A stretch of 64,000 bases of DNA from the NCBI GenBank assembly GCA_964390725.1, contig CAYMIW010000002.1, positions 6,875 to 70,874 on the forward strand, read 5' to 3'. The notes beneath the pieces were generated by a model. The model made no database searches. It was not told the DNA's origin and saw only the letters and a list, made by a program, of their open reading frames with translations. Source of the DNA: an uncultured Syntrophomonadaceae bacterium (GTDB lineage Bacteria > Bacillota > Dethiobacteria > DTU022). Within the stretch, counting starts at the first letter, position 1. Every line of letters starts with the position of its first letter. Positions 4,273 to 61,823 of this stretch are shown here, one piece after another. Position numbers and translations under genes: made by a program.

Positions 4273-4276
4273 TTTA

Positions 4277-16537: not shown

Positions 16538-16618
16538 CCTTCGAACATCTGCCGTCTGAAAGGGTAGCGTTTTGTCTGGGGCTTCAACGCTTTCCTGGAA
16601 GAAAATCTTGCCCGAGGA

Positions 16619-17818: not shown

Positions 17819-18027
17819 TAGAAGAACAATTACTTATGACAAATAGTATACGTGGGGTTATGTTTTAAATTAGAAGGTTTTATGTGGTACAATTTCAAGA
17901 TGGCCAAGCAACTACCATTTTAACATGTCATGCTCCATCTTAGTCTAAGCAATCTGCGTTATGGGAACCCTGTTTTCTGCTTCCGATTTCCGGGTCTTTA
18001 ACAGCCCCTGCGAACTTAGCATATTGT

Positions 18028-18444: not shown

Positions 18445-18460
18445 TTATAGCCTCCTAATC

Positions 18461-39714: not shown

Positions 39715-40494
39715 TTGGAAAAGTTAATTAAACAATATTTTATATCACCGGCAGCAGGTAAAAGGTTAATAGCAAAATCGATATTGCATATCACATCAAT
39801 AGTCGATGCTTTGGAGAATAGAACGATTGTAATTACAGCAGGAACTACTAATGGCTATATTGTTGAAGAAATATTTAAAAGAAAAATCCAGGACGTAGAA
39901 TTTTCCAAAAAAAGGTTTTTCAGGGGTGTATCATTGCCTCATCAATATGCTATGACTGACACTGGAAGATTAGGAGATGAGAGCCACTTTCCTGGTGATG
40001 TGGTTATTGTAAAAGGAAAATGGGAAAAAGGAAAAACAATATTTGATGTTGCAGATAGTTTGAAAAAGGGTGATATTATAATTAAAGGGGCCAATGCCGT
40101 TAATTTGGAAAGTATGCAAGCAGCAATATATGTTGGACATCCAAAGGCAGGCACTATTGGTGTAGCACTTCAAGCTGTTCTGGGTAGAAGAGTTGAATTA
40201 TATTTGCCAGTTGGTTTAGAAAAAAGAATACATGGAGATATAAATGATATTGCAAAAAGGCTGAACTCTTCAAATGCAACGGGTTCGAGGTATTTACCTG
40301 TAAGCGGGAACGTCATAACTGAATTGGATGCAATTAAGCGAATAACCGGGGCTTCAGCTGAACTTGTTGCAAGTGGTGGAATATGTGGAGCGGAGGGAAG
40401 TTGTTGGATTGCTGTTTCTGGAAGTAATAAACAGTTGAGTGATACGGACGATTTAATAAAAGATATTATTAATGAACCCATTTTTGAAATATAA
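39715..40494 (+). CDS. hypothetical protein (TTG start)
   Basis: 259-aa ORF preceded by RBS ggaggag. Glycine-rich, soluble-looking. No motif recognised. Confidence 0.45.
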   Translation: MEKLIKQYFISPAAGKRLIAKSILHITSIVDALENRTIVITAGTTNGYIVEEIFKRKIQDVEFSKKRFFRGVSLPHQYAMTDTGRLGDESHFPGDVVIVKGKWEKGKTIFDVADSLKKGDIIIKGANAVNLESMQAAIYVGHPKAGTIGVALQAVLGRRVELYLPVGLEKRIHGDINDIAKRLNSSNATGSRYLPVSGNVITELDAIKRITGASAELVASGGICGAEGSCWIAVSGSNKQLSDTDDLIKDIINEPIFEI

Positions 40495-42950: not shown

Positions 42951-44159
42951 TTATAATTGATTATGAACGCGAAGAACCACATCACTCATCGGGTATGCCG
43001 AGCAGACATGGACAAAGCCATCATCAAGATCGCCTGCTCTCACACCCAGGCCCTCGGGTCTGTACCATATATCTCCTTTCTCAAGAAGACTGCGACACCA
43101 GCCACATTCGCCACTGCGGCAGTGGGAATCTACAGCATACCCTGCCCGTTCTAGGGCTACTAGAAGGGTTTCATCGGAACGGCATTCAAGTTCAACTTCC
43201 GTTATTCCGTATCTCAATGTTAGTCTGAATACCTGTCCTTTTTTGCCTGCCGGGAATTCCGAATGGGCAGTAATGTCATCGCTTTCTCCATAAGCTTCTT
43301 CCTGACGAAAACGCCTGATTACGCCCAGATTGTCAAGGGCCTTGTTAACAAAACCATACATTGCCTGGGGGCCGCAAATGAAATAACTTTTTCCGCCGGT
43401 ATCTCCTGTAACTTTTTTAATTAGATCGGCTGTGATAAAACCTTTTTCGCCATCCCAGTCAGAAGTGGGTTCCGAAAGCACATGGATTACCCGGATTCTA
43501 CCGTTGCTTTGTTTAGCCAGCAAATCTAATTCTTCCCGGAAGATTATGTCATTTTGATTGCGGCTTCCGTAAAGGATAGTAAGTTTTTCGGGCCGTTTGC
43601 TTTCGGTAAGCATATCCCGTGCGATTGAGCGAAACGGGGTGATACCACTGCCGCCAGCCAATGCCACAAGCTCTTTTTGATCGCGAATACCGTGGTACCA
43701 CATATTACCAAAGGCCCCGTCGCATTGAATGATTACCCCAGGTTTCCAGTTGTTGGTTATATATTCGCTTGTATACCCGCCATCTTTTTTCTTTATGGTG
43801 ATTTCAATATAGCCGTCTTCTGCAGCATTAAGCGGTGAAGATGATATTGTGTAAGGGCGGGTACAGTTACGTCCGTCTATTTCAAACTTAACCGAAAGAT
43901 ACTGGCCGGCGTAGAAGAAAGGCAATTTATACCCTTCTGTCGCTTTCAGCCGGTAGGTCTTTGTTGTTGGGGTCTCTTCTGTAACAGTATCAATTTGGGC
44001 ATCAAATAAACCGGGATGAAATTCTTTTACGAATTCAGCGATCGGGTCGCTTCCATCGACAAAAGGCTTTCCGCTATCTATCCAGGCATTACGCTGCGGG
44101 ATAAGCCTGGCGAATTTAATCAGGTCGCGAACTTTACCATTTACTGTAATATTTGACAT
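42951..44159 (-). CDS. FNR-like oxidoreductase (FAD-binding + NAD(P)-binding) with C-terminal plant-type 2Fe-2S ferredoxin domain (reductase B1)
   Basis: RPYTISS flavin motif, NAD-binding LAGGSGITPFRS, C-terminal CRSGECGWCRS...C (C-x4-C-x2-C...C). Confidence 0.75.
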   Translation of the reverse strand: MSNITVNGKVRDLIKFARLIPQRNAWIDSGKPFVDGSDPIAEFVKEFHPGLFDAQIDTVTEETPTTKTYRLKATEGYKLPFFYAGQYLSVKFEIDGRNCTRPYTISSSPLNAAEDGYIEITIKKKDGGYTSEYITNNWKPGVIIQCDGAFGNMWYHGIRDQKELVALAGGSGITPFRSIARDMLTESKRPEKLTILYGSRNQNDIIFREELDLLAKQSNGRIRVIHVLSEPTSDWDGEKGFITADLIKKVTGDTGGKSYFICGPQAMYGFVNKALDNLGVIRRFRQEEAYGESDDITAHSEFPAGKKGQVFRLTLRYGITEVELECRSDETLLVALERAGYAVDSHCRSGECGWCRSLLEKGDIWYRPEGLGVRAGDLDDGFVHVCSAYPMSDVVLRVHNQL

Positions 44160-45745
44160 TATGACACCCCCTGAAGTTCTTTAAAAGTGTCTTCGGCAAC
44201 GCGGATACCCGAGCTTATAACACTTGAATAACCGACTGTTCTGAAAGTACCGCCGCCTACAAAATCAAGCCCCTTCAGGAAACGCTCTTTTTCCATGCTC
44301 AGTGTGCGCGAAATAACTCCGTCAAGGGCCGTTTGCTCATAACCATATATATTTCCACGCAGGGCATTGGCATAACGGACATAAGTAGCCGGGGTCGAGA
44401 TGGAGATTTCCTCAATGTGTTCCCGGATAGATGCGCCGGTAGCCAGTTCAAACCGGTCGATAAGATAGTTGGCCAGCTCTTCATTTGATTCAAGATACTT
44501 ATATTTATCCATTGCTTCCAGGAAGGCATCCGGATGGTAGGTCTCAGCGAAATTAAGCTGACAGCGGTTTTTACCTGTGCAACCGGGTATGGCAACATCT
44601 GAGCAGGTTACAACCAGTTTGGGATGTTTAACCCAATGTCTTATGGTTTCTGCGATCTGCTCGGTATGCAGGTGATCACCGATAAAGTATTCGTAGCTGT
44701 CAATGCCCATTTCTTTGGCGGGAGCATTGAGGCCCAGGTACATTGTAAAAGGCGACAGGGCAAGTTTGCGGACATTATAGAGTTTTTTCATACGCTCTGG
44801 AATAAATGATTCTGGAAGCATCTTTGTAATGGCAATTGTGGCGAGCGCATTACAAATCACCTGCCTGGCTCCGATTCTGGTTCCGTCTGCAAGTTCAATT
44901 CCTGTTACGCGGTCACTTTCTGTAAGAAAACGCTCCACCTTGGTGCAGCATTCTACCTGTGCCCCCAGCTTCCGCAATTGCATTTCCACTTTATTCGCCA
45001 TGGAGTGAGAAGTTTTTTCCGGGATATGCGCTCCTTCAATAAGATAACGGTGAAGCATAACAGCCCATACCGGAAAGCTTATTATACGCATGGAGTGTCC
45101 CAGGTAGCCAACCATGCAGTGTAAAACCTGAATGGTTCGCTCACTGAAGTTAAACTGGGCATTAACCTCAGCTACCGAGTATCCGGCCAGGCGTACAAAA
45201 GAAGCATGGTCCTTAAGGATTTTCAGGGGTTTGATTGAGCTCGAATTTTCAATGTCTTCCAGCGCATCAGCAATTTCTTCACATAAATCAAGGTAGCGGG
45301 ACATCTTTTCTCCATCGCCGGGCGATAGTTTTTCAATTGCTTCAACAATTTTTGTTCGACCATAGGGCATGGTCATATTAATATCATAGTTCGAAAGAAT
45401 GCAGCGGTACATTTCCGGTGTCTGTTTCAGATCAAGGTCTACTCCGCATTCTTCAATCAGTAACCGACGCGCCCGCCCGTGTGCAGTTTGGATTCCTTTC
45501 TCCTTAGCTTCAATCTGGCCTGTGCCAAATTCACACAATGCATGCAGGGTTGCCTCAAATTCAAAACGGCCCCGTACGAAACTGGTTGCAAAACCGCCGG
45601 TCATATTATGCTGTTCCACCAACAGGACATCAACGCCTTTTTGGGCTAAACGCAGTGCAGCTGTTAGTCCGCCAAAGCCTCCACCGACTACAATAACATC
45701 ATAGTTATCTTTGAAGCGCTTAAGTCCTTTCATGCCGTTTTTCAC
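44159..45745 (-). CDS. CrtI/phytoene-desaturase-like NAD(P)/FAD-dependent oxidoreductase (A1)
   Basis: N-terminal dinucleotide fold YDVIVVGGGFGGLTAALRLAQKG. About 520 aa, as in the CrtI/amine-oxidase superfamily. Stop overlaps the start of the B1 reductase. Confidence 0.75.
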   Translation of the reverse strand: MKNGMKGLKRFKDNYDVIVVGGGFGGLTAALRLAQKGVDVLLVEQHNMTGGFATSFVRGRFEFEATLHALCEFGTGQIEAKEKGIQTAHGRARRLLIEECGVDLDLKQTPEMYRCILSNYDINMTMPYGRTKIVEAIEKLSPGDGEKMSRYLDLCEEIADALEDIENSSSIKPLKILKDHASFVRLAGYSVAEVNAQFNFSERTIQVLHCMVGYLGHSMRIISFPVWAVMLHRYLIEGAHIPEKTSHSMANKVEMQLRKLGAQVECCTKVERFLTESDRVTGIELADGTRIGARQVICNALATIAITKMLPESFIPERMKKLYNVRKLALSPFTMYLGLNAPAKEMGIDSYEYFIGDHLHTEQIAETIRHWVKHPKLVVTCSDVAIPGCTGKNRCQLNFAETYHPDAFLEAMDKYKYLESNEELANYLIDRFELATGASIREHIEEISISTPATYVRYANALRGNIYGYEQTALDGVISRTLSMEKERFLKGLDFVGGGTFRTVGYSSVISSGIRVAEDTFKELQGVS

Positions 45746-45757
45746 TTCCTTTTCGTT

Positions 45758-47002
45758 TTAGCTATTTCTTAAACTGGCCTGTTTTTGAAGCGGCTCTTTT
45801 ACATGTTTCCCAGGTGGGATCCTTATGGTCAGGTCTGATAGGGGATAGGTAGAACAGGGATGTATGTAACCAAGTTCTTTATCTACAGCTCTTCTGCCGT
45901 CATGATCAGGTAGAATGTACACTTCGCCTGATATAAGTTTGCTGCGGCAGATTCCACATTCGCCTGAGCGACAGCATGAATCGAGAACTAAACCGCTTTT
46001 TTCAACAGCTACCAATATGCTTTCAGATGTTTTTGCAGAAATTGCAATACGGCTTTCTCCAATATGTACATCCATATTAACGGTTTTTTCTGCTTGTTCT
46101 GATGGGTAACCTGTCATTAGGGTTACGTTGTCGGGAGTGCCGCCAACCTCAAAACGCATCTGTTTGCGTTCCAGGGCCCCAAGTTTTTGCAGCTCTTTTT
46201 CCACGAAGCTGTACATAATTGAGGGTCCGCAGATAAAATAGGTTTTTACGGAGGGGTCGGGTACATTATTGCGGATAAAATCAGCATCGATGTAGCCCTG
46301 CCGGAGGTTTGAGCTATCCGTTTTTTCATATGTATTAAAACGCCGCAACCTGTCCGGGAAACGTTGGCAAAGATCGTCAAGTTCTTTTTCAAACAACAGG
46401 TCGCAATCATCTTTGCACCCATACAGAATGGTCATTTTCATATCTGTTTCTTTGCAGGCAAACTGTTTCATCATTGAGCGGAACGGTGTGATGCCTGTTC
46501 CACCTGCCAAAGCTACGATATCTTTTGTGTCACGCAAAGGAGAATAAAAAAAGTCTCCATGTGGTCCGGATGCCAATATATCCATACTTATTTCCCAGTT
46601 ATCCCATATAAAATTACTCACCAGTCCTCCCGGTTTTTTGCGTACACTGATTTCGTAGTAACCCTTTGTCCCTTCCGCTTCGAAAGGAGCGGAGGATATA
46701 GTGTAAGCACGGGAGATAAAACTATCTTTTATCACAAGTTTTACACTTATATACTGACCTGCCAGAAATACCGGTAGCGCGGGTGAGTCTTTAGCTGGCT
46801 GCAGGCGATAAGTTTTTACAGTATCATTTTCATCAATAATATCTGTAATGGTAAGTTTCAGTTCATCGGGATGCATTGCTTTTGCCAGTGCGGAAATTGG
46901 ATCAGGTAGTTTTTCTGCAGGTGCTGCAGCAATACGAGCCTGCCGATCTTTTTTCATTCGTAAAAGGGCAAACAGCCCGGGGATGAATTTTATTCTACTC
47001 AT
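45758..47002 (-). CDS. FNR-like oxidoreductase with C-terminal plant-type 2Fe-2S domain (reductase B2, paralog of B1)
   Basis: RAYTISS, LAGGTGITPFRS, CRSGECGICRS...C. Clear paralogy with 42951-44159 throughout. Confidence 0.75.
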   Translation of the reverse strand: MSRIKFIPGLFALLRMKKDRQARIAAAPAEKLPDPISALAKAMHPDELKLTITDIIDENDTVKTYRLQPAKDSPALPVFLAGQYISVKLVIKDSFISRAYTISSAPFEAEGTKGYYEISVRKKPGGLVSNFIWDNWEISMDILASGPHGDFFYSPLRDTKDIVALAGGTGITPFRSMMKQFACKETDMKMTILYGCKDDCDLLFEKELDDLCQRFPDRLRRFNTYEKTDSSNLRQGYIDADFIRNNVPDPSVKTYFICGPSIMYSFVEKELQKLGALERKQMRFEVGGTPDNVTLMTGYPSEQAEKTVNMDVHIGESRIAISAKTSESILVAVEKSGLVLDSCCRSGECGICRSKLISGEVYILPDHDGRRAVDKELGYIHPCSTYPLSDLTIRIPPGKHVKEPLQKQASLRNS

Positions 47003-47014
47003 ATTTTGACCTCC

Positions 47015-48565
47015 TTAGCTGTGAGATGCAATTTGTTCTATTGTGGCTAACCTGCCCGAAAGAATTGAGCTCGGAAAGCCCGCAATCAGAAGCCCGGCAT
47101 TGCCCACAAATGAAAGCCCTTCGATCAGGCGTTCTTTATCCTGTGTCAGGGCCTTGATAATGACTGAATCAAATACTCTGTGGTCATATGCATAAACATT
47201 ACCCATAAATGCTCCCAGGTAGCGGGCAAATGTGTGAGGTGTGCAGACTTCGATTTCTTCTATATGATCACGAATTGGAATACCAAGGATGTCTGATGCC
47301 TGGTCTATGAGTGCACCGGCCAGTTCGTACTTCTTCTCATGATAATCAACCCGGGTTACTGACCTCCAGGCTTCAGACCTGGCGAGAGTTTCCAGGTGCA
47401 AAATACAAGTGCCTTCCGGGGAAGCATCAGGAATCAGGGTGTTTGGACATGCACCTGCGAAATATTCGCTGGGTGCAAGGTTATCCAGGTTGTCATAAGC
47501 GCGGTTGATGTTTCCGTCAGGGGCAAAGTAATACATATAGTGGTTTAAGCCCAGTTCTTCTGCACTCCGGTTGAGGCCCATGTAGAGGCTTAGGAAACTG
47601 GTACCTCTTGAACGCATATTTAATGCCTTTAAAGTTTTTTCTGGGAGTTCTTCTCTGGGGAAAATCATGTTTCCAAATACATTATGAGGTAAAGCGTTTG
47701 AGTAAACATGGTTAGTTTTGATAACTTCACCGCGATGGGTTACAATACCGGTCACCCGGCCCTTTTCAACCAGGATTTTATCTACACGGGTGTTGTATTC
47801 AATCTGACCCCCGAGCTCCTGGATTCTTTCAGCCATTTTTGTAGATATTTCAAATGTGGTTTTAAGCGGTGCATGGACTGGTGTTGTAGACATGCAGGAG
47901 AGGACCAGCCCGTATATGGGGTAGGACATGGCATCCATGGGAAGGCCGGTGAAAGTCCAGTAGATATCCAGTAACTCCAGTGCTTTCTCGGGTATTTTGA
48001 ATTTATCTGTTACTTCTTTTACAGTCAGGCCTGCTGCTGCTATTAAACCACTGTGCTTTCTGATCAGGTCCAGTGGCTTAATATTGCCGTCTTGTTCATT
48101 GATATAATTTACTGCGTCAAGCATCTTATCACAAAAATTAAGATATTCAGTTACCGACTGCCTGGTGCCCGGCACTTTTGCCTCGATATATTCTATAAGT
48201 CTTTCTTTTTCAAGTGGCAGGACTTCCTTGATGTTTTTATTGGTCATGGTGTAGAAACGCCCTTCTGTCATCAGGGGAAAGTCAAGATTAAGCTTGAGAT
48301 CGTCTATCAGAAACTTGTATAAAGGGCCTTTATGCTCGGGCGTGCCGAATTCAGTGATACACTGAACTGAAAGTTCAAACTCGAAGCGCCCCCGAACAAA
48401 GCTTGTTGTTACACCACCCGGTAAATTATGCTGTTCAAGTACCAGCACATTCAAGCCATTATAGGCCAGGTTACATCCGGCAGCCAATCCTCCCATCCCG
48501 CTACCAATTACGACAGCATCATATTGTTCTTTAAATAACTGTTCCAAATTACTCCTCCTCTCCAA
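47015..48565 (-). CDS. CrtI/phytoene-desaturase-like NAD(P)/FAD-dependent oxidoreductase (A2, paralog of A1)
   Basis: YDAVVIGSGMGGLAAGCNLAYNG...LEQHNLPGGVTTSFVRGRFEFE aligns by eye with A1 (...LVEQHNMTGGFATSFVRGRFEFE). Confidence 0.75.
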   Translation of the reverse strand: MERRSNLEQLFKEQYDAVVIGSGMGGLAAGCNLAYNGLNVLVLEQHNLPGGVTTSFVRGRFEFELSVQCITEFGTPEHKGPLYKFLIDDLKLNLDFPLMTEGRFYTMTNKNIKEVLPLEKERLIEYIEAKVPGTRQSVTEYLNFCDKMLDAVNYINEQDGNIKPLDLIRKHSGLIAAAGLTVKEVTDKFKIPEKALELLDIYWTFTGLPMDAMSYPIYGLVLSCMSTTPVHAPLKTTFEISTKMAERIQELGGQIEYNTRVDKILVEKGRVTGIVTHRGEVIKTNHVYSNALPHNVFGNMIFPREELPEKTLKALNMRSRGTSFLSLYMGLNRSAEELGLNHYMYYFAPDGNINRAYDNLDNLAPSEYFAGACPNTLIPDASPEGTCILHLETLARSEAWRSVTRVDYHEKKYELAGALIDQASDILGIPIRDHIEEIEVCTPHTFARYLGAFMGNVYAYDHRVFDSVIIKALTQDKERLIEGLSFVGNAGLLIAGFPSSILSGRLATIEQIASHS

Positions 48566-48601
48566 ATATTATTAGCAAGCAATCAACAGTATTTAACTAG
48601 A

Positions 48602-49333
48602 TCAACTTTCTTTATCTTCGAACAGTTGCTCCAGGACTCCGATTCCCGAATGCATAATAGCCATGGTCGCCTGTTCAGATCGGTCGGCATTGCGCGACCG
48701 CAGTGCACCCAACAGTATTTCGTGTTGTTTAATCGAGGTGGTACAGCGTTCATCGTTATTAAAAATTTTTGGTAAATAATAAAGGAGAGCCTGTTCGAAA
48801 GACTTAAAGATCATGGCGTAAATAATGTTCCCTGATGCATTACAAACCTCATAATGGAATCGGAAATTGGCATGCATGAATTTGTTCCGGTCTTTACCAA
48901 GAGAAGATTTCATTTCAACAATAGCTTTTTCAAGCTCCGCCAGATTATCATCAGTAGCATTTACCGCTGCCAGCTTAGCACATTCACTTTCCAGCAATAT
49001 GCGCATTTCTGATAAACTGGTAAAAAACCCATGATCCGTTATTTCTGAACTGTGGTTAATAAGAGATAAGAGCATCTGCGGGGTACTTTCTTTCTTATAA
49101 TCTGTGACAAATGTTCCTTTTCTTGGTATAACACGCAGAAAGCCTTTTGCCTCCAAATCTAGAATGGCAAGGTTAACAAGGCTGCGGCTAACTCCCATCG
49201 CTGCTGCTAAATCGCGCTCGGGAGGCAGCCGGTCACCGGGTTTTAATGCGCCGGAAAAAATTTTGCTTTCAATCTCATATACAACTTGTGAACGCATGCT
49301 TATGTTTCTAAGTTTGGGAAAGGTTATGCTCAA
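48602..49333 (-). CDS. GntR-family transcriptional regulator with FCD domain
   Basis: wHTH GDRLPPERDLAAAMGVSRSLVNLAILDLEAKGFL plus helical C-terminal domain. First gene of the minus-strand redox operon. Confidence 0.8.
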   Translation of the reverse strand: MSITFPKLRNISMRSQVVYEIESKIFSGALKPGDRLPPERDLAAAMGVSRSLVNLAILDLEAKGFLRVIPRKGTFVTDYKKESTPQMLLSLINHSSEITDHGFFTSLSEMRILLESECAKLAAVNATDDNLAELEKAIVEMKSSLGKDRNKFMHANFRFHYEVCNASGNIIYAMIFKSFEQALLYYLPKIFNNDERCTTSIKQHEILLGALRSRNADRSEQATMAIMHSGIGVLEQLFEDKES

Positions 49334-49774
49334 TTTTATATCTCCTTTCTGGCAACCTGGATATTAAGCTAACTGGCACTTCTATCTGTGGCATGGCCAC
49401 ACACCAAATAATATCACAATCTTTCAAAATGATCAAAAATAATTATTAAGTAGTTTTAAACCTGTGCCATTTAAAGCAACTTTAAATTTTTTCTATGATC
49501 AGGGTAAAGGTATAAAACTGCGCCGAAGTTGTGTGCAAGTATTAATAAAAACCCTTTCATAGCAGTATTTATCCAGTTGACAATAACCCCGTCCCCTTGT
49601 CACCCAACTTCCATGTATCGACTAAAGCTAAATTTAATGTTATATTTTATTAAATATTGTAAAGATAAAGACAAGATGCCGGGGTGTAAGACGTGACCGT
49701 AGCTGAAAATGCATGTTAAGAATATAATGTAAATAAATAATGATTACTATGCCGCGATTTTGGGGGAGTGTAAT

Positions 49775-52651
49775 TTGAGAAAGCTCACAGTGTTCTTATT
49801 CATTCTTAGCTTAACCCTGATTATTGCAACTCCCTGTGCTGCGGAAGATCGTGAAATCAATTTAACTGACAATGAAATAGAATTTATCAATAATCATCCG
49901 GTTATAAAACTTGCCATAGATCCTTTATTTGTTCCTTTTGAATTTATCGATACAGATGGCGAATATAAAGGTATAGCCGCTGATTATCTGTCCCTGGTCA
50001 GCGAGAAAACCGGACTCCGGTTTGAAATAGCAAAAGGATTGAGCTGGCCTGAAGCATATGATTTGGCCCTGTCGGGAGATTTGGATGTTTTACCGGCAAT
50101 ATCGAAAACCGAGGAGCGAGAGCGTTTATTTATCTTTTCAGAACCCTATTACTACTTCAAAAGAGTAATTGTTACCAGGGATACTGAAACCGTTATAACC
50201 GGGATGGAAGATTTAGAAGGATTAACAGTAGCTGTGCAGAGGAATAGCTCTCATCACAGCTACCTGTTGTCTTACCCCGGGATCAATCTAAGCTTATACG
50301 ATTCTGTCGAAGCTGCGCTTACTGCGGTTGCCAATGGCTCGGAAAGATCTTATGTTGGCAACCTGGCAACAGCTAATTACCTGATTCGGTCAACAGGGTT
50401 GACCAACCTGAAGTTTATAGCTTTTGAAGCGGAAAAACAACAGGCCCTGTATTTTGCTGTTCGTCGGGACTGGCCTGAACTGGTTAGTATTCTCAATAAG
50501 GCATTAGCTACTATAACTGTGGAAGATCAAATTGTAATTAACAACAAATGGATTGATTTTGAAACAGATCCCGATTATGGTCTAATTATCCGGATTTTTT
50601 CTATCACAGGCACCCTTGTGGCAGTCGTTCTGGGTGTTTCATTTTACTGGATTGCGCGCTTAAGGAAAGAAGTGAAGATGCGTGAACTGGTTCAGATAGA
50701 CCTGGAAAAAGCAAAACAGGAAGCCGATGAAGCGAATGAGTTTAAATCCAGCTTCATGGCCAGGATGTCACACGAAATCCGGACTCCGCTTAATGCAATT
50801 ACTGGGATGGCTTACCTGCTTAAGAAAACAGACCTTTCACTAACTCAGAGTATGTATACCGATCGAATTACCCAGGCTTCAAACAACATGTTGAGTATCA
50901 TTAATGATATCCTTGATTACTCGAAAATAGAAGCAGGGAAAGTAGAATTAGAGATCACTTCTTTCAGTATGGATCAGGTTATCCAGGATGTTGTGAACAT
51001 TGTTTCTTATAAAATTGAAGAACAGGGTATTGGGTTTAGATTATCTAAAGACCCACAGGTTCCCAACTGGTTTAAAGGTGATCCAAAGCGCATTGAACAA
51101 ATCCTTCTTAATATACTGAACAATGCTGCGAAATTTACAAGCGAGGGCGAAGTTACATTTGATATCAGCCTTGTGGCCAGGGAAAGTGAAATATACCACC
51201 TGTCATTCACTGTTCAGGATACCGGGATCGGCATGACAGAAGAGCAGGTTAATCAACTATTCATACCCTTTATCCAGGGGGATAGCAGTATTAACCGGCG
51301 TTTTGGCGGTTCCGGATTGGGGTTGTCGATAGTTAAAAACCTTGTCGATATGATGGGAGGGCAAATAAAGGTTTTCAGCACTCCAGGGGAGGGTTCTACC
51401 TTTATTTTTCAGTTGTCATTAACTGTGGATAAAGAAAAAGAAGATGTTTATGTTAAGGCGCTGTCATCCAACCACTTCAGGGATATAAGGACATTGGTGC
51501 TGGAAAAAACCGGCTCTAATATGAACCTGATTGAAAACTATCTCAGTGCATTTGGTATGCAATGCGAGCTTACAACCTCAGAGGTCAGTGCATTGAGTAT
51601 GCTTGAAGCTGCCGACGGCAAATTTGCCAAATCTTTCGATCTGTTTATAGTGGATTATGATACCCCTGTGGAAAAGGGCTTTAAGTTTATCGAGTCTATA
51701 CGCGACAACAACAGAATAGTTAAAATGCCGAAGATAATCCTGCTTCTTCCGATGCTGAGGGAAGATTTATTCGATAAACTCAACGAATATGAAATTGATA
51801 TGGGTATAGGCAAACCTATTATTCCTTCTGTTCTCTTAAACGGTATTTTAGATATATTTAACTTAAAAGCGGTTTCATCTACCCAGCTATCTTCTAAAAC
51901 GGAGACCGATTTATCCAAGCGCGGCAGGCAATTAACCATTTTAGTAGCGGAAGATAATAAAACTAACCAACTAATTGCCAAATCGGTTCTTCATCAGGCC
52001 GGAATTGAAGCGATTATAGCCGGAGATGGCCAGGCGGCAGTCGAGTTGTATCAGCAGAATAATAACAAAATAGACTTAATCTTGATGGATCTTCACATGC
52101 CGGTAATGAACGGTTATGAGGCTGCGCAGGAAATAAGAAAGATGTCAGATAGTGTCCCTATCGTAGCGATGACAGCTGATGTAATAATGGGGGTAAAGGA
52201 AAAATGTGAACAAAGTGGAATATACCACTATATCAGTAAACCTTTTGACCCTGATCGTTTAATCCAGAAGGTAAAAGATGTTATTAATGAGCAAGATAAC
52301 AGTATGGCTCAATCAATGCCTATGCTGGATCAGTCGGCTGGGTTAAGTAATGTTGGTGATGATTCTGAATTATACCGCCAGGTATTGAATGAATATCTAA
52401 ATGAGAATCGGGATACCACGCATAAACTTGCCTTAGCAATAAAAGAAAAAAGATATTCTGATGCTGTACAAATAGTTCACAAGGTCAAGGGCAGCTCAGG
52501 CAGCATCGGAGCCAAGGTAATTTATGAAGCAGCCGTTTTATTACAAAAGGCATTAAAAAAAGAGAAGATGGAGGATATAGTGCCACTGGAAGCAAAATTT
52601 TCTCTTCTATTTGAAAGATTACTTAAAGAAGTTGAAAACTTACAGGCTTAA
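49775..52651 (+). CDS. hybrid sensor histidine kinase: periplasmic family-3 solute-binding domain, TM, HisKA, HATPase_c, pseudo-receiver, REC, Hpt
   Basis: TTG start after RBS gggggag. Signal peptide. H-box SHEIRTPLNAI, G-boxes, receiver DLHMPVMNGYEAA, C-terminal Hpt HKVKGSSGSIGA. Confidence 0.85.
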   Translation: MRKLTVFLFILSLTLIIATPCAAEDREINLTDNEIEFINNHPVIKLAIDPLFVPFEFIDTDGEYKGIAADYLSLVSEKTGLRFEIAKGLSWPEAYDLALSGDLDVLPAISKTEERERLFIFSEPYYYFKRVIVTRDTETVITGMEDLEGLTVAVQRNSSHHSYLLSYPGINLSLYDSVEAALTAVANGSERSYVGNLATANYLIRSTGLTNLKFIAFEAEKQQALYFAVRRDWPELVSILNKALATITVEDQIVINNKWIDFETDPDYGLIIRIFSITGTLVAVVLGVSFYWIARLRKEVKMRELVQIDLEKAKQEADEANEFKSSFMARMSHEIRTPLNAITGMAYLLKKTDLSLTQSMYTDRITQASNNMLSIINDILDYSKIEAGKVELEITSFSMDQVIQDVVNIVSYKIEEQGIGFRLSKDPQVPNWFKGDPKRIEQILLNILNNAAKFTSEGEVTFDISLVARESEIYHLSFTVQDTGIGMTEEQVNQLFIPFIQGDSSINRRFGGSGLGLSIVKNLVDMMGGQIKVFSTPGEGSTFIFQLSLTVDKEKEDVYVKALSSNHFRDIRTLVLEKTGSNMNLIENYLSAFGMQCELTTSEVSALSMLEAADGKFAKSFDLFIVDYDTPVEKGFKFIESIRDNNRIVKMPKIILLLPMLREDLFDKLNEYEIDMGIGKPIIPSVLLNGILDIFNLKAVSSTQLSSKTETDLSKRGRQLTILVAEDNKTNQLIAKSVLHQAGIEAIIAGDGQAAVELYQQNNNKIDLILMDLHMPVMNGYEAAQEIRKMSDSVPIVAMTADVIMGVKEKCEQSGIYHYISKPFDPDRLIQKVKDVINEQDNSMAQSMPMLDQSAGLSNVGDDSELYRQVLNEYLNENRDTTHKLALAIKEKRYSDAVQIVHKVKGSSGSIGAKVIYEAAVLLQKALKKEKMEDIVPLEAKFSLLFERLLKEVENLQA

Positions 52652-52678
52652 TGAGTTGTTATAATTGACAAGGGTTAT

Positions 52679-54790
52679 TTGCAGGGAGGGGTAAAGTTGG
52701 TCGAAAAAATATTGGTTGTTGACGATTCTGCTTCAGACAGATTGATCATCCAGAAAATGCTGGAAGATTATAATACTCTTACAGCGAGTGATGGTAACGA
52801 GGCTTTGAATCAAATTAATGAGCATAATGACATTGTTCTGATCATCCTTGATTTACATATGCCCAATATGGATGGATTCCAGGTTCTGGCCAAGCTTAAT
52901 TCTGATAATCGCTATAAGAGTTTACGCACAATAATATTAACAAACTATGATGAGTTGGATAATGAAATCAAAGGGTTAAAACTTGGTGCGGTTGATTTTA
53001 TCCGAAAGCCTGTGCATATGGAAGCACTGAAAGTTAGAGTGGATGTTCAGGTGAAACTCCTTCGAATTCAACAACTACTTGAGCAAAAACTTCATGATCA
53101 GGGCCTAACTTTTGATATAATTTTCAACCAGGCACCACTGGGTATCTCTATCTGCCTTGGAAAAGAGCCTTTACCGATTGAAAACATGCATAAGCTTAGC
53201 GTTAATCCAAAGTTTGAAGAAATAACAGGTAGAACAGAAGCAGAATTGATCAAGCTGGGTTGGGAAAAAATAACTCATCCCGATGATCTGGAGGAGGATC
53301 TGGAAAATTACTGGAAACTTCAGGCAGGAGAAATAAAAAGCTATGCAATGGATAAAAGGTATATCAAGCCTGATGGTTCAATTGTTTGGGTGTATATGGT
53401 TGTTGCTTCCCTGGATTTATATTTGGATAATCAATTTAACCATATCTGCCTGGTTCAGGATATAACCAAGCGAAAAAATGTTGAGGAAAATCTTATTTAC
53501 AATCTCGAGCATGATCAATGGACCGGTTTATATAATAAAAACTATTTGGAAAATCTATTAAAGAACGACATTATGATGCAGGATAAAGTAAAAAGCGCAC
53601 TTGTAGGAATTAATTTCAGTCAACTTCATTCACTAAACCTGGTTTATGGATATCAATATACCAGGGATTTAATAAGGACCATTGTTGATTCTTTAAAGAA
53701 ATTTTGTAGCGATGAACGAATGTTATTTAACATGTATGAACTTCAGTATGCTTTTTACATTAAAGCTTACCGGGAGAAAAAAGATTTAGAAGTATTTTGT
53801 GAAGCCTTGGTCGAAGCCTTGGATTCTTTACTCACTATTGAAAGAATCGACGCCGGCATTGGGATAGTTGAAATAGAAGATAACGCTGAGCTGAATGCTG
53901 ATCAGCTTTTCAAAAAGATGTTGATCGCTTCTGAAAAAGTAATTGATGGATCAGGAAACACAGCGTATTGTTTTTTTGATGATAACATGGAAGCAGAAAT
54001 TGTCCGCAAAGATGAGATTAAGCGAGTCCTCACCCGGCTTGCAGCTGGTGATGTTAGCGAGAGCTTGTTTCTGCAGTATCAGCCGATTCTAGAACTAAAG
54101 ACAAATAAAGTGAAAGGATTTGAAGCGCTGGCCAGAATAAAGAGCAACCAGTTTGGTCTTATATCACCCCATGAGTTTATCCCGATTGCAGAAGAAACTA
54201 AGTTGATCATTCCATTGGGGGATAAAATAATTTTACAGGCTTTTTATTTTATGAAGAAACTCAGCGATAATGGTTACAGTTCATTGTGCTTTTCAATAAA
54301 TATTTCCGCGATTCAACTTTTAAGGAAGGGATTTTGTCAGTATATTTTTGATCTAATCCGGGAGATGAATATAGATCCTGAGAATATTTGCCTTGAAATA
54401 ACAGAATCATTACTGGCGGATGATTATGATGAAATCAATAAAATTCTCGGTGAGCTGAAGAGTTTAGGTATAAAAATAGCGCTCGATGATTTTGGAACTG
54501 GTTATTCTTCACTCGCCCGTGAACATGAACTTAATATAGATATTCTTAAAATAGATAAAATCTTTATGGATAAGCTTCTGACATTGAAGCCGGATGAAGC
54601 AATAACCGGCGATATTATTTCTATGGCTCATAAACTGGGACACCGGGTTATAGCAGAAGGTGTAGAGGAAGAAAAACAAAGGCGTTATTTAGAGGATAGC
54701 AGTTGTGATATGATCCAGGGTTTTCTGATTAGCAAACCCCTTGACGAGGAGTTGGCGATAGAGATAATCAGAAATTCAAGCTTTGCATAG
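52679..54790 (+). CDS. response regulator with REC–PAS–degenerate GGDEF–EAL domains (c-di-GMP phosphodiesterase)
   Basis: Receiver LVVDDSASD...DLHMPNMDG. GGDEF fold lacking the GG(D/E)EF motif. EAL motifs FEALARI and DDFGTGYSSL present. Confidence 0.85.
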   Translation: MQGGVKLVEKILVVDDSASDRLIIQKMLEDYNTLTASDGNEALNQINEHNDIVLIILDLHMPNMDGFQVLAKLNSDNRYKSLRTIILTNYDELDNEIKGLKLGAVDFIRKPVHMEALKVRVDVQVKLLRIQQLLEQKLHDQGLTFDIIFNQAPLGISICLGKEPLPIENMHKLSVNPKFEEITGRTEAELIKLGWEKITHPDDLEEDLENYWKLQAGEIKSYAMDKRYIKPDGSIVWVYMVVASLDLYLDNQFNHICLVQDITKRKNVEENLIYNLEHDQWTGLYNKNYLENLLKNDIMMQDKVKSALVGINFSQLHSLNLVYGYQYTRDLIRTIVDSLKKFCSDERMLFNMYELQYAFYIKAYREKKDLEVFCEALVEALDSLLTIERIDAGIGIVEIEDNAELNADQLFKKMLIASEKVIDGSGNTAYCFFDDNMEAEIVRKDEIKRVLTRLAAGDVSESLFLQYQPILELKTNKVKGFEALARIKSNQFGLISPHEFIPIAEETKLIIPLGDKIILQAFYFMKKLSDNGYSSLCFSINISAIQLLRKGFCQYIFDLIREMNIDPENICLEITESLLADDYDEINKILGELKSLGIKIALDDFGTGYSSLAREHELNIDILKIDKIFMDKLLTLKPDEAITGDIISMAHKLGHRVIAEGVEEEKQRRYLEDSSCDMIQGFLISKPLDEELAIEIIRNSSFA

Positions 54791-55068: not shown

Positions 55069-56262
55069 TCAGCTGACCTTTACAATTATAGCGGCAGCTG
55101 TATCTCCGGCAGCACAACCGGCGGCCATCGCATAACCGCCACCCTTAATTACTGCTTCTTCGATAGCCTCAACCAGCAACCGCCCTGCTGTAGGAGCCTG
55201 GGGATGGCCGAAGACCATTGAACTACCATAATTATTGAAGTTATTTGCATCGATACCCAGCCCCTTTGCCAGACAGAGGTCATTGGCAATAAAGGGGTTA
55301 TGATTCTTAATAGCTACAACATCTTCAGCTTTTATTCCAGCCCGTTCCAGGGCCATCTTGGCAGCCGGAACCGGTGCTGCAGGCATAAAAGCTTTTTTAG
55401 TCCTGGCAAATCCGTATGATATGAGCTGGATTGTCACGGAAGGATCACTGCTCAGCTCTGCCGCTTTTTCTTTACCGGTAACCAGGATGCCAACGTTACC
55501 GTCAGCAGGATGAGTCTGGGCTCCAAAAGTGTGAATGCCTCCTTCCATTACAGGCCTCAACTTTTTAAGAGCTTCCAATGATGTTTTCGATATACCTTCA
55601 TCTGTCTCAATAAGTTTTGTTTCCTTGCGTGACACTTTTACCTCAACGGGAAACATATAACGCTTCTGGAATTCACGATCGTTGGCCAGGGCATCATTAT
55701 ATTGCTCATAGCGACGCAGGGTAAGTTCATCTGCTTGTTCACGGGTAAACTCTTCTTCTTTAGCTACGTTTTCCGCTGTGTTAATCATGCCCAGACCGGT
55801 CGCAGGGTCGCATCTCATGTTATCCATATTCCAGTTTTCTGCAATCACTTCTCCTCCCGGTCCCATCGGGTTAGGCCAAATTGTATGCGGACCATTGGAA
55901 GTACGGTCTACCATTAAGCAATAAGCAGTGCCAACACTTCCCATTTCAACAGCCATTCCTGCATTGCACAGAATGGTTGTTGAGGTTGAACAGGCCTGCA
56001 TCATGGTTACCCCGGGAATATCAGGCGCTCCCATCTGCACAGCAGCCCAGGTCGAGCCAAAAAATACCCTGTGTTGCCCAATTGTTATACCAAGGTAAAG
56101 GTAGTCCAGAACCTTTGCCGGATCAATTCCCCGGTCGGCAAACCAGCGTTTACTGGTCGCCGCACCAAGATCGATTGCATTTTCGTTTTGTAAACTTCCC
56201 TGCCATTTACTGAAGGGTGTACTATAATATCCCTTGTAGGGAATATAAGCTTTACTAAACAT
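55069..56262 (-). CDS. thiolase-family acyl-CoA acetyltransferase-like protein
   Basis: Active-site region MMQACSTSTT. C-terminal GSSMVFGHPQAPTAGRLLVEAIEE...GGGYAMAAGCAAGDTA resembles thiolase C-terminal motifs. Confidence 0.65.
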   Translation of the reverse strand: MFSKAYIPYKGYYSTPFSKWQGSLQNENAIDLGAATSKRWFADRGIDPAKVLDYLYLGITIGQHRVFFGSTWAAVQMGAPDIPGVTMMQACSTSTTILCNAGMAVEMGSVGTAYCLMVDRTSNGPHTIWPNPMGPGGEVIAENWNMDNMRCDPATGLGMINTAENVAKEEEFTREQADELTLRRYEQYNDALANDREFQKRYMFPVEVKVSRKETKLIETDEGISKTSLEALKKLRPVMEGGIHTFGAQTHPADGNVGILVTGKEKAAELSSDPSVTIQLISYGFARTKKAFMPAAPVPAAKMALERAGIKAEDVVAIKNHNPFIANDLCLAKGLGIDANNFNNYGSSMVFGHPQAPTAGRLLVEAIEEAVIKGGGYAMAAGCAAGDTAAAIIVKVS

Positions 56263-56277
56263 AATGATGCTCCTTTC

Positions 56278-58317
56278 TTATTTACCCTTAAATTCAACCG
56301 GAGTGCCCGGAGGGGCAGACAAGCCGGCTAATGCATCTTCTGTAGCAAAAATCTCATGTAACTTCTGCAGTTCCAGCTCTACTGCTTCCTTAATTGAAAC
56401 CTTTGACTGTGCATCAATCAGCTCATTGGCCATTTTTAAAGCCACCGGCGCTTTCCTGGAAATATATTTTACCATTTTAGATGCAAAGTCGGAATTTACA
56501 CCTTCAGGTGCCTGTCCGGTTAGTAAGCGTTTGACATTTACATCTGTAAAAGCACCCTTAATATCTTCAAGCTCTTTAGGAAGCTCCCGCGGAGCATATT
56601 TGTCGAACTTACCTTCTGTAACCAACTCTTTAATCGCTGTTTCTGTTTGAGCCGGCTCTACCAGTTTTTTTACAATTCCCATCTGGAAAGCTTCTTTAGC
56701 ATTAATGCCTTTACCCGTGAAAACAAAGTATTTTGCCAGTTCCCGGCCAAGATGTCTTTCGATCCTGATCATCCCGCCCAACCCTGGGAAGATCCCAATA
56801 TTGGTTTCGGGGAAACCGAAAGTACCGTTCGGGGTTGCAACAATAGCCTGGCAGGCTAAAGCCAGTTCACTTCCACCACCCAGGGAAAGGCCATCCAGCA
56901 GGGCTATTGTCAGTTTTTCTGAGTTTTCTATTCTCAACAAAAATTCCTGGCCTTTACGGGTAAAGTCGTACGTTTTGTCGACAGTATTGTTTTTTATATT
57001 ATCAACGAAGAACTTGATATCGGCCCCGGCGATAAATGCTTTTCCTGCGCCGCTGAAAACTATTCCTTTTAAAGATTGATCTTTTTCTGCCTGGTCAAAT
57101 TTAGCCACCAACTGATCAACTACCTGAGGGTTCAGGGCATTCATTGCCTCGGGACGATTAATAATTATATAAGCAATATCATCCTTAACTTCCAGGTCGA
57201 CAAATTTAAATTCAAAGGGTTTGCCCAGTTGTTTCTGCTTTTCCAGTAGAGCAGGCACTTTGAAATCGGGATGTCTTTCGCCCATATTTTTAACCAGCTG
57301 ACAAGCCTTTTCGACTCCAACCCGGTTAATCATTTCGAACGGGCCATAGCGCCAGCGTAAACCAATCTTGGCTCCTCGATCTGTATCTTCAATGCTGGTT
57401 ACACCTTCTTCAACCATGGTAGCTGCAACACCCATTACTGCTGCACACATCCGATCAGCAACAATATCAATTTTTGAAGGATCTACTTCGCCGCTTAAAT
57501 CCCAATCATCTCCGGAATCAACCTGCTTTTTCAAAATTTCCGGCGCTGCATAAAATGGCCCTATCTCTTTGCTTAACGTATTGGCTGAGTGTAAAGCAAT
57601 TGGCACACCGGTAACATTGATAAGCTCAAAGGTTCCCATTCCGATCCCGAAAGCTTTTTTCGAAGCAGCTTCGATTGTCGGAATATTTGCCACTCCTTCT
57701 TCATATATACGAATTGCTTCAACATACCAGGGAATAAAGAAACGGTTGACCGCAAAACCGGGAGAATCTTTAACCAGTATCGTGGTTTTGCCGTGTAGTT
57801 TACTGATCAGCATTGCTTTCTCAATTGTTTCTTTGCTGGTGCCTTCATGTGGTATTATCTCGAGCAAACGATTTTTGGCCGGGTGGTAAAAGTAGTGCAT
57901 TCCGACGACCCTGTCCGGGCGTTTTGTATACTTAGCCAGGTTTTTTACATAAAAACTGGATGTGTTTGTGGCCAAAATTGTTTTTTCAGAACAAAGTTTG
58001 TCAAGCTTTGCAAAAAGGTCGCCCTTAACTTTTTCATCCTCAAACACTGCTTCAAGAACCAAGTCGGCATCAGCCAGTTGCTCAAAATCTGTCGTACCTG
58101 TAATTCTGCCGAGAACTTCTTCAACCTGGTCGGGTGTAAAGATTTTTCGTTTTACACCTTCATCCAATGTTTTTTTGATTCCAGACAAGCCGCGCTGCAC
58201 AAACTCCTCTTTTATGTCAAGAAGAACAACTGATAATCCTTCCTGAGCCATTTTTTGGGCTATGCCGCTGCCCATATTACCAGCACCGACAATTCCCACT
58301 TTAAAAGGTCTGTCCAT
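56278..58317 (-). CDS. bifunctional 3-hydroxyacyl-CoA dehydrogenase / enoyl-CoA hydratase (HADH N-terminal, crotonase C-terminal)
   Basis: N-terminal Rossmann VGIVGAGNMGSGIAQ. C-terminal crotonase region FSGAGKAFIAGADIKFF. Confidence 0.85.
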   Translation of the reverse strand: MDRPFKVGIVGAGNMGSGIAQKMAQEGLSVVLLDIKEEFVQRGLSGIKKTLDEGVKRKIFTPDQVEEVLGRITGTTDFEQLADADLVLEAVFEDEKVKGDLFAKLDKLCSEKTILATNTSSFYVKNLAKYTKRPDRVVGMHYFYHPAKNRLLEIIPHEGTSKETIEKAMLISKLHGKTTILVKDSPGFAVNRFFIPWYVEAIRIYEEGVANIPTIEAASKKAFGIGMGTFELINVTGVPIALHSANTLSKEIGPFYAAPEILKKQVDSGDDWDLSGEVDPSKIDIVADRMCAAVMGVAATMVEEGVTSIEDTDRGAKIGLRWRYGPFEMINRVGVEKACQLVKNMGERHPDFKVPALLEKQKQLGKPFEFKFVDLEVKDDIAYIIINRPEAMNALNPQVVDQLVAKFDQAEKDQSLKGIVFSGAGKAFIAGADIKFFVDNIKNNTVDKTYDFTRKGQEFLLRIENSEKLTIALLDGLSLGGGSELALACQAIVATPNGTFGFPETNIGIFPGLGGMIRIERHLGRELAKYFVFTGKGINAKEAFQMGIVKKLVEPAQTETAIKELVTEGKFDKYAPRELPKELEDIKGAFTDVNVKRLLTGQAPEGVNSDFASKMVKYISRKAPVALKMANELIDAQSKVSIKEAVELELQKLHEIFATEDALAGLSAPPGTPVEFKGK

Positions 58318-58368
58318 AAAAAAATCCTCCTTGTAAAAAAAGATATTATTGTGTAAATACGGAAATTG

Positions 58369-59934: not shown

Positions 59935-59961
59935 ACCTCCTATATTTTTACCCAGCTTGCC

Positions 59962-61260: not shown

Positions 61261-61750
61261 CTTCTTCTCCCCTTAATTTTTTTATTGATTCAACAAAATC
61301 CCACATTAAAGCAATTACCAGCACCAGCATCCCAATGGCAGCTAGATAAATCCATGGATGAATTGGCCAACGTAAAACGCTTGTGAATTGACCGACAGAT
61401 TGAATTCTTTGTGCATATTGCAATGTATGCCAAAACGCTAATGAAAACATCCCGACTCCAATTATTACACTGAATAAATCCAGGATCCCCTGAATTCTAA
61501 TTTTGAACTTTGAGTAAAGAATAGTTATAAACAGGTTTTCCTTTTTAAACTGGGCAACCGCAAAAGCAAAAAAAACAGAAATTGCAAAAAGGAGCCGCGT
61601 CAGTTCAAAGGTTCCGGAGATCGGCCGGTTAAAAAAATATCTTCCAACCACATCGCCGACTGTTAGAAAAAGCATAATAAAAATAGCAAGTATCGCAATC
61701 CATGCAGCGGCTTCGGTGATATTGCCTATAACACGTTTTATTAAATTCAT
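61247..61750 (-). CDS. TRAP transporter small permease (DctQ family)
   Basis: 167 aa, four TM helices. Overlaps the dctM-like start. Confidence 0.7.
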   Translation of the reverse strand: MNLIKRVIGNITEAAAWIAILAIFIMLFLTVGDVVGRYFFNRPISGTFELTRLLFAISVFFAFAVAQFKKENLFITILYSKFKIRIQGILDLFSVIIGVGMFSLAFWHTLQYAQRIQSVGQFTSVLRWPIHPWIYLAAIGMLVLVIALMWDFVESIKKLRGEEVDES

Positions 61751-61823
61751 TCAGACCACCTCTATAATAGCTCCGGCCTTCAGCTTTAAATTTAGCTAAA
61801 GGCCGGAGCACATATTTTACTGG

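Follow-up and report, generated by a model that had tools for sequence, protein, structure and literature searches.

Why should a flavoprotein with the fold of the carotenoid desaturases be encoded together with a reductase of its own? This question is raised by five genes on the minus strand of a 64,000-nucleotide (nt) stretch of DNA, here called the window, which is part of contig CAYMIW010000002.1 of an uncultured Syntrophomonadaceae bacterium. A gene for a GntR/FCD regulator is followed by two pairs of genes, A1-B1 and A2-B2, in which the A genes encode CrtI-like flavoproteins and the B genes encode predicted reductases with sites for NAD(P)H, flavin adenine dinucleotide (FAD) and a [2Fe-2S] cluster. 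To our knowledge, CrtI/CrtD, CrtISO and RetSat, unlike A, have no dedicated and genetically linked reductase. The best explanation of the locus is a self-contained operon that encodes two independent two-component flavoenzymes, A1-B1 and A2-B2. Its genes are the following (aa, amino acids):

48602-49333, minus strand: GntR/FCD regulator, 243 aa, the first gene of the operon
47015-48547, minus strand: A1, CrtI/CrtD-fold flavoprotein, 510 aa, revised start
45758-47002, minus strand: B1, NAD(P)H-FAD-[2Fe-2S] reductase, 414 aa, cognate partner of A1
44159-45745, minus strand: A2, CrtI/CrtD-fold flavoprotein, 528 aa counted from GTG
42951-44159, minus strand: B2, NAD(P)H-FAD-[2Fe-2S] reductase, 402 aa

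A and B form a conserved two-gene module. When one genome of each prokaryotic species was scanned by alignment, relatives of A were found at no fewer than 584 loci, and the open reading frames (ORFs) of the best 80 loci, which were kept, were searched with the window proteins. A B gene lies directly beside A in 76 of these 80 loci and a single B-A polypeptide is encoded in two others, which makes 78 of 80, while the remaining two loci are cut off by contig ends. A preliminary description of this DNA, made from its letters alone, had supposed that A is coupled to B and had called for a survey of their co-occurrence; the coupling holds across genomes, and B does not belong to an unrelated adjacent pathway in most of them. 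Both fusions are in frame and have a linker of about 12 residues. One is found in a Smithellaceae metagenome-assembled genome (MAG; locus L018, 228-3341, 1038 aa) and the other in a Syntrophaceae MAG (L028, 4477-7245, 923 aa), where the junction reads …YPLSDLEIRLP-LTGAAAKGGPHF-DAAYDCIVIGAGNGG…; two further Syntrophaceae MAGs (L015 and L041) have unfused genes in the order B then A. When 681 neighbour ORFs from the 80 loci were clustered, no third gene proved to be universally linked, and the recurrent neighbours (TetR, GPH transporter, radical SAM, glycyl-radical enzyme, AMP-ligases, acyl-CoA dehydrogenase and enoyl-CoA hydratase) each occur in few lineages. Since the flanking genes vary and no third gene is universal, A+B is a self-contained unit, which a GntR/FCD or TetR regulator often accompanies.

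The hosts among the best 80 loci belong to Bacillota, Syntrophia, Spirochaetota including Leptospirales, Chloroflexota and, in many cases, Promethearchaeota (Asgard archaea). A separate search found the module in the cultured species Companilactobacillus allii, Furfurilactobacillus rossiae, Loigolactobacillus bifermentans and Levilactobacillus zymae, and in the three lactobacilli whose context was examined a divergent GntR/FCD(FadR_C) regulator stands ahead of A and B. Metagenomic proteins of the A family number thousands. Among reference genomes, the nearest is an uncultured ‘Syntrophomonadaceae’ MAG (L008), whose A1 protein is 93% identical, and relatives with about 70% identity in A1 are found in Eubacteriaceae or Eubacteriales MAGs. 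The window contig itself was also found in metagenomes of JGI (L001-L003).

B1 and B2 match the Pfam models FAD_binding_6, NAD_binding_1 and Fer2, all above their cut-offs, and the best solved-structure match of B1 is BenC (1KRH, E 1.8e-24). In a survey of 82 family sequences, the FAD motif R-x-Y-[ST]-x-x-S, the NAD(P)H motifs GGxGxTP and CGP and the [2Fe-2S] ligands C-x4-C-x2-C…C are all invariant, which argues that B is an intact NAD(P)H-FAD-[2Fe-2S] electron-transfer protein. The family also has an N-terminal extension of its own, of about 50 residues, in which Arg20 and His44-Pro45 are invariant. Against the equivalog models of PaaE, GbcB, Hcr/PRK10684, BenC and PyrK the best scores are 138-144 bits, compared with cut-offs of 383-500, and none is reached; weak matches are found to the PyrK-type electron-transfer subunit of dihydroorotate dehydrogenase (DHOD). 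The nearest families, PaaE, GbcB, BenC and Hcr, all use NAD(P)H to supply a terminal enzyme with electrons, have the same three domains and all the cofactor motifs of B, and are encoded beside the enzyme that they serve. While known reductases of the FNR type serve Rieske, di-iron, hybrid-cluster or DHOD enzymes, the partner of B is a CrtI-fold flavoprotein. DHOD-B/PyrK, in which a flavoenzyme is wired to an FNR-type FAD/[2Fe-2S] partner, is a functional analogue of B. The conserved motifs trace a predicted cofactor path from NAD(P)H through FAD and [2Fe-2S] to the flavin of A, that of a two-component redox enzyme. B1 is 57-85% identical to the B proteins behind genes of the A1 clade and about 44% identical to other B proteins; judged by sequence, B1 co-evolves with A1, and each A has its own co-evolving B.

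A1 and A2 match the Pfam models NAD_binding_8, DAO and Amino_oxidase, but fall short of every curated NCBIfam cut-off, CrtD included, by a factor of two to six. For the CrtI phytoene desaturase family (TIGR02734, cut-off 238.1 bits) A1 reaches 102.4 and A2 104.8 bits, and for CrtISO (TIGR02730, cut-off 586.9 bits) 143.1 and 91.4 bits, respectively. Curated cut-offs place A outside every characterised clade, so the position within a known desaturase clade that works without B, which the preliminary description had allowed for, was not found. In an AlphaFold2 model (pLDDT 89, pTM 0.90), A2 is predicted to have the three-domain FAD fold of CrtI/CrtD. The top fold match of this model is gamma-carotene desaturase 4REP (E 1.6e-30, TM 0.76/0.82), followed by CrtI 4DGK (E 2.3e-23), plant PDS and 5MOG; amine oxidases rank below, and sequence identity to the solved structures is at most 17% throughout. 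The top relatives of A by fold and by sequence are thus the carotenoid desaturases and the carotenoid isomerase family, and CrtI/CrtD, CrtISO and RetSat share with A an N-terminal FAD-binding motif and an F-x-F-[D/E] strand. Pfam, NCBIfam and structure matches agree with the domain assignments given earlier to A and B.

Such relatives suggest ordinary carotenoid biosynthesis, in which A would be a phytoene desaturase or a prolycopene isomerase and B would belong elsewhere. This is the sense of the CrtI/CrtD fold and of the source annotations, and all members of the A family have only the automatic database labels ‘prolycopene isomerase’, ‘phytoene desaturase family’ and ‘NAD(P)/FAD-dependent oxidoreductase’. 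It is contradicted by the scores, which are far under the CrtI-family, CrtISO and CrtD cut-offs, and by the low identity to solved desaturases. Neither the recurrent neighbours of the 80 loci nor the called-gene tables include carotenoid genes, the hosts are lactobacilli and anaerobes without pigment, and practically every A has a B linked or fused to it. Carotenoid biosynthesis is effectively excluded, and the conserved, sometimes fused reductase partner makes the carotenoid-type labels of the A family wrong in kind.

The same matches bear on a second possibility, a redox-neutral isomerase that, like CrtISO, would perform cis-trans isomerisation or double-bond migration on a reduced flavin, with B as a reductive activator only. 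Among the NCBIfam models, A1 scores best with the carotenoid isomerase (143 bits, E 1e-41, residues 15-460), many databases label members ‘prolycopene isomerase’ automatically, and CrtISO and several related flavoenzymes need reduced flavin without net redox change. However, the score of A1 is a quarter of the cut-off of 586.9, A2 is better matched by CrtI-type desaturases, and strict 1:1 pairing, coupling, co-evolution and fusion fit a stoichiometric electron-transfer partner more than an occasional activator. We also know of no characterised CrtISO with a dedicated reductase, and we regard an isomerase as improbable.

A third possibility comes from enzymes that resemble A around one residue. 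The A family has the motif PGGF-[AS]-[TS]-SF-x-RGRFEFE-x-[ST]-[LM]-H, in which the histidine is position 68. This position is His in all 83 sequences outside the A1 clade and Gln in all 11 members of that clade; A2 keeps His68 (…FEFEATLHA…), while the A1 motif around it reads ...RGRFEFELSVQC. A1 otherwise keeps 62 of 86 conserved family positions. In the P-x-x-R-S-H-E motif the conserved family Arg is Thr in both A1 and A2, which hints that the two differ in specificity from the mainstream of the family. The sterol delta24-desaturase (delta24-SD) of Sterolibacterium binds flavin mononucleotide covalently on His57 of its alpha and His58 of its beta subunit (PMC11061730), and the N-terminal consensus of this histidine, G-F-[LR]-x-[NS]-[TL]-H-A, is also found in CtmA and CtmB (PMC11061730). 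These enzymes have an F-x-x-[S/N]-[L/T]-H-like motif with the His about 50 residues past GxGxxG, and in a comparison made at the motif level only the F-E-A-T-L-H-A of A2 has the same spacing from GxGxxG. Because motif and spacing match, His68 is a candidate flavinylation site. Stand-alone RetSat-like proteins, which were the only matches of a tblastn search of plasmids (at most 27% identity and no B partner), also have His at the equivalent position (GFEWDVGLHY), so His68 is not diagnostic of Ctm-type enzymes. A1 lacks the flavin-linking His of Ctm and delta24-SD.

CtmAB is the limonene dehydrogenase of Castellaniella defragrans and consists of two CrtI-like flavoproteins, which are accompanied by the 2Fe-2S ferredoxin CtmE and the reductase CtmF (PMC4109377; PMC11061730). 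Like A, CtmAB and delta24-SD are oxygen-independent, CrtI-like flavoproteins of COG1233, and in both, as in the window, two divergent paralogues are encoded side by side. CtmAB depends genetically on the [2Fe-2S] ferredoxin and is clustered with an NADH:ferredoxin reductase; at the genomic level B, with its FAD, NAD and 2Fe-2S domains, is the counterpart of both. Since CtmAB has this dependence, the earlier statement that the pairing is not a described system was too strong: CtmAB with CtmE/CtmF is a precedent known from both genetics and biochemistry (PMC4109377; PMC11061730), and DHOD-B/PyrK is a precedent too. The module differs from Ctm in that ferredoxin and reductase, separate there, are here one FNR-type FAD/NAD/[2Fe-2S] polypeptide, sometimes fused to A; in that there is one A per B; and in that it occurs in fermentative or syntrophic hosts and probably works in the opposite direction. 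Ctm and delta24-SD oxidise their substrates in denitrifiers, while A+B is found in fermenters, syntrophs and Asgard archaea, in which the reductive direction is more plausible.

If this precedent were followed in full, A+B would be an oxidative two-component dehydrogenase, in which A desaturates or hydroxylates an allylic or activated C-H and the electrons leave through the [2Fe-2S] cluster and FAD of B to NAD(P)+. The requirement of CtmAB for CtmE and its clustering with CtmF would fit this flow, as would the His68 that is invariant in the main family (…F-E-x-S-L-H…) and is spaced from GxGxxG like the flavin His of delta24-SD and CtmAB. The flavins of delta24-SD cycle by single electrons, which suits a 2Fe-2S partner, and the weak PyrK match of B recalls DHOD-B/PyrK as a precedent for such flow. 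Energetics speak against it: NAD(P)+ (-320 mV) cannot drive C-C desaturation or allylic hydroxylation (~0 mV or higher) unless the product is unusually stabilised, and the hosts are mostly fermenters and syntrophs. CtmE and CtmF, moreover, are separate proteins, the reductase being annotated as NADH:ferredoxin oxidoreductase, in denitrifiers with a respiratory chain, and the His is shared with stand-alone RetSat-like proteins and missing from the A1 clade. An oxidative enzyme is unlikely on this balance.

The reading that we favour, tentatively and at a little under an even chance, is that A+B uses NAD(P)H to reduce C=C bonds in hydrophobic substrates of the carboxylic or acyl type. B would accept a hydride from NAD(P)H on its own FAD, and its C-terminal [2Fe-2S] cluster would relay the electrons one by one to the flavin of A. 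Reduced A would saturate a C=C bond, most likely conjugated or allylic, in a hydrophobic carboxylic-acid or acyl-type substrate, which would be the reverse of the desaturations catalysed by its relatives. The saturation would serve the anaerobe as an electron sink, or as a detoxification or catabolic step, and A1-B1 and A2-B2 would differ in substrate specificity.

We infer the direction of electron flow from four points: the kin of B are electron donors; strict anaerobes or fermenters, syntrophs and Asgard archaea make up the great majority of the hosts found; thermodynamics favours reduction; and the 1:1 fusions resemble self-sufficient redox enzymes. C=C/C-C couples lie at about 0 mV and NAD(P)H at -320 mV, so saturation is strongly favourable and the reverse reaction to NAD(P)+ is not. 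A reductive use is thus plausible on thermodynamic and taxonomic grounds. Enzymes of the superfamily are known to desaturate lipophilic chains at allylic positions (CrtI, delta24-SD) or to do the reverse (RetSat), which points to the saturation of a conjugated or allylic double bond, and RetSat is a precedent for a saturase within the superfamily of A.

As for the substrate class, an array of two Syntrophaceae MAGs comprises an AMP-ligase, a long-chain FadD, an enoyl-CoA hydratase, a 615-aa acyl-CoA dehydrogenase, B and A. AMP-ligases are found near the module in L012, L029 and L094, and YhhN and membrane or lipase-type hydrolases in L007 and L094. Together with the FCD/FadR_C regulators, the AMP-ligase, acyl-CoA dehydrogenase and lipase-like neighbours give hints of acyl or carboxylate substrates.

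Several points weigh against a reductive enzyme of this kind. The neighbourhood hints are heterogeneous and each is limited to few lineages. Searches of the available literature, with COG1233, gut bacteria and Asgard archaea among their subjects, revealed no characterised member of the family, and the literature on RetSat and CrtISO held nothing relevant on bacterial electron donors. Covalent attachment as a rule raises the potential of a flavin and is a typical feature of dehydrogenases, which would count against a saturase if the flavin is on His68. The top NCBIfam match of A1 is an isomerase family, and the characterised CrtI-like enzymes that depend on ferredoxin (CtmAB) or have a His-linked flavin (delta24-SD) act oxidatively (PMC4109377, PMC11061730).

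Two known reductases were considered as relatives. That of Acetobacterium wieringae, which acts on isoprene, is an Fe-S flavoprotein of the GltD/NfnB-like kind and is unrelated. For the conjugated linoleic acid (CLA) reductase of Butyrivibrio (Fukuda 2007), the accessible papers name no protein family, no such name occurs among the database matches of a Lachnospiraceae family member, and the link is not supported.

Why the window has two pairs is a further question, and the layout of the operon bears on it. The five ORFs, transcribed in the order GntR, A1, B1, A2, B2, are tightly packed, and coordinates, Pfam and pairwise alignments bear out the five minus-strand ORFs, and the alignable A1/A2 and B1/B2, of the preliminary description. 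The A1 ORF as listed covers 47015-48565, but the TTG at 48565 falls within the ribosome-binding site GGAGAGGAGGAG; the true start is the TTG at 48547, which GGAGAGGAGGAG precedes and which gives the 510-aa protein, identical to database protein P0001. For A2 the database version is 524 aa long and begins at the ATG at 45733. The gap between A1 and B1 is 12 nt with AGGAGG inside, and the A2 stop and B2 start overlap as TAATG with one common base at 44159, which is consistent with translational coupling. No terminator-like site was found downstream of B2. The gaps are short or overlapping and suggest a single GntR-A1-B1-A2-B2 transcript. A1 and A2 are 33% identical across 505 aa (E 8e-96) and B1 and B2 39% identical across 389 aa (E 1e-94), so both paralogies are unambiguous and far above chance.

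These pairs had been taken for a tandem duplication, which does not hold as a local and recent event. A1 and A2 are each 36-40% identical to the main family, compared with 33% to each other, and because each A is nearer to the main family than to its neighbour a recent local duplication is not the origin of the pairs. A1 belongs to a small derived clade and is always the first gene after GntR, while the second pair varies: it is of the A2 type in the window, L009 and L095, and of the main-family type in L004, L007, L010, L011 and L013. The layout A-B-A-A-B is found in L004, L005 and L013, and independent A-B-A-B arrays occur in L094 and in an Asgard MAG (L014), while most of the family has a single A-B. 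In L008 the GntR-A1-B1 part runs collinear with that of the window (87% nucleotide identity), but a deletion has taken out A2 together with the N-terminal half of B2, and a 189-aa remnant of B2 (10807-11376) stands directly after B1. In this remnant CRSGECGWCRS has become CRSGECGWCPS. L012 has the A1-B1 pair only, and L093 has an A2-lineage pair by itself. From L008, L012 and L093 the two pairs are autonomous modules, which tend to gather in arrays, and this autonomy argues for differing specificities and against an obligate A1/A2 heteromer.

Such a heteromer, which the preliminary description had offered as one option, would be a hetero-oligomer like CtmA/CtmB or delta24-SD alpha/beta, with the His-less A1 in a structural or electron-relay role. 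CtmAB and delta24-SD are both hetero-oligomers of paralogues, 26-27% identical, tandem A-B-A-B or A-B-A-A-B arrays recur, and in cassettes with a complete downstream region, except L012, the Gln68 A1 adjoins a His-bearing A. In those enzymes, however, the two paralogues make one hetero-oligomer, while the window has one B per A and A1-B1 stands alone elsewhere. L008 keeps GntR-A1-B1 after losing A2 and half of B2, the pairs of L012 and L093 stand alone, and single A-B loci are the rule in the family. Every A has its co-evolving B, and the second A varies among related cassettes. An obligate heteromer is therefore disfavoured and very improbable.

The regulator belongs to the FCD subfamily of the GntR family, as both domains exceed their Pfam cut-offs (GntR 64.3 bits, cut-off 27; FCD 86.9 bits, cut-off 24.3), and FadR_C matches weakly. 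It is under every NCBIfam equivalog cut-off, and those of NanR, LldR, PdhR and FadR are not reached. FCD-type GntR regulators typically respond to carboxylic acids or acyl-CoA, and an FCD/FadR_C-type GntR also adjoins A-B in lactobacilli, Natronincola and others. The 426 nt upstream of the gene contain two elements:

49387-49401: candidate GntR operator, a perfect 6-3-6 palindrome at the putative regulator promoter
49408-49436, minus strand: promoter-like site upstream of the regulator gene, TTGATC, 17 nt, TATTAT, with extended TG

The promoter-like site is a consensus match only, and the frequency of such sites in the region is no higher than the shuffled expectation. The palindrome reads TGTGGC-CAT-GCCACA on the gene strand, lies just 3' of the best -10 element and has no second copy of its kind in the window. 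Its sequence agrees with GT-N(x)-AC, the pattern of operators of the GntR family. The kindred palindromes TGGTGGC-N3-GCCACCA and TGGTGGC-N3-TCCACCA precede the GntR genes of L004 and L007, two cassettes in which the A1-type protein shares about 70% identity with that of the window. The FCD-type GntR noticed earlier upstream of the pairs is thus joined by a conserved palindrome at its promoter, and the GntR/FCD protein probably autoregulates the operon through this candidate operator.

Some genes near A-B in other genomes were noted in their own right. Several Asgard MAGs (L034, 4750-7749, minus strand; L017, L033, L037 and L043) have a PFL-like, dehydratase-type glycyl-radical enzyme or its activase near A-B, and in a Firmicute (L061, 6092-7144) the activase is found without the enzyme, immediately upstream of A-B. 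The N-terminal extension of the enzyme, of about 190 aa, has no domain by Pfam, and an SCP2 domain, which had been guessed, has no Pfam support. In L007 the A-B-A-B array is directly followed (13516-16149) by a YhhN-family membrane protein of the lysoplasmalogenase type and then by a 645-aa hydrolase with a C-terminal multi-pass membrane region, which recurs near A-B in L007, L011, L023 and L064. Beside the divergent GntR-A-B of Companilactobacillus allii (L089, 1-5986) there are two shikimate/quinate dehydrogenase paralogues, an SDR, an AP_endonuc_2 (TIM-barrel) protein and two MFS transporters; this is possibly a hydroaromatic-acid pathway, seen in a single genome where coincidence is conceivable.

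Within the window, the plus-strand region 49760-54790, divergent from the GntR operon, encodes a 963-aa hybrid histidine kinase with a periplasmic SBP_bac_3 sensor and an Hpt domain and, behind it, a 703-aa response-regulator protein with PAS, GGDEF and EAL domains. This pair is on the same contig in L001 and L002 and is not found beside related cassettes. Beyond it, 55069-62900 on the minus strand encodes the TRAP transporter DctPQM, a CoA-transferase, a 679-aa FadB-like 3-hydroxyacyl-CoA dehydrogenase with enoyl-CoA hydratase, and a thiolase, which suggests organic-acid uptake plus beta-oxidation. A link of this operon to the cassette was rejected, as the two opposite-strand signalling genes stand between them and the operon is absent beside related cassettes. 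Two adjoining Fic-domain proteins are encoded at 2715-5380 (plus strand), with an M78/IrrE-like peptidase domain as the fusion partner in one and DUF4172 in the other. The region 15434-20125 has an S-Me-THD (DUF917-type) protein beside a PucR-type regulator and a peptide ABC transporter, with the large subunit of methylmalonyl-CoA mutase on the opposite strand. A 259-aa ORF at 39715-40494 (plus strand) has no Pfam match and is also called as a gene on the JGI contig.

For the A family as a whole these results describe a widespread and mis-annotated two-component redox enzyme of anaerobes, which has nothing to do with carotenoid synthesis. A bolder proposal, which we hold to be doubtful but worth stating, is that A+B is an unrecognised family of self-sufficient, NAD(P)H-driven CrtI-fold saturases of anaerobic Bacteria and Asgard Archaea, whose flavin, maybe His-linked, would be fed single electrons by a dedicated [2Fe-2S] reductase. 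It would be the missing enzyme type for the anaerobic hydrogenation of conjugated or polyunsaturated lipids and isoprenoids, for example in rumen or gut biohydrogenation such as CLA reduction and in sediment lipids, and would show the kind of donor that CrtI-type saturases such as RetSat need. The module is present in cultured and tractable hosts, which are the four lactobacilli named above and Natronincola peptidivorans, and the window cassette offers a natural comparison of a His68 enzyme beside a Gln68 enzyme. How unsaturated lipids and plant acids are hydrogenated anaerobically in guts, digesters and sediments is poorly understood, and if A is a saturase, A+B would provide an enzyme type for this process as well as a first example of electron supply to a CrtI-fold reductase.

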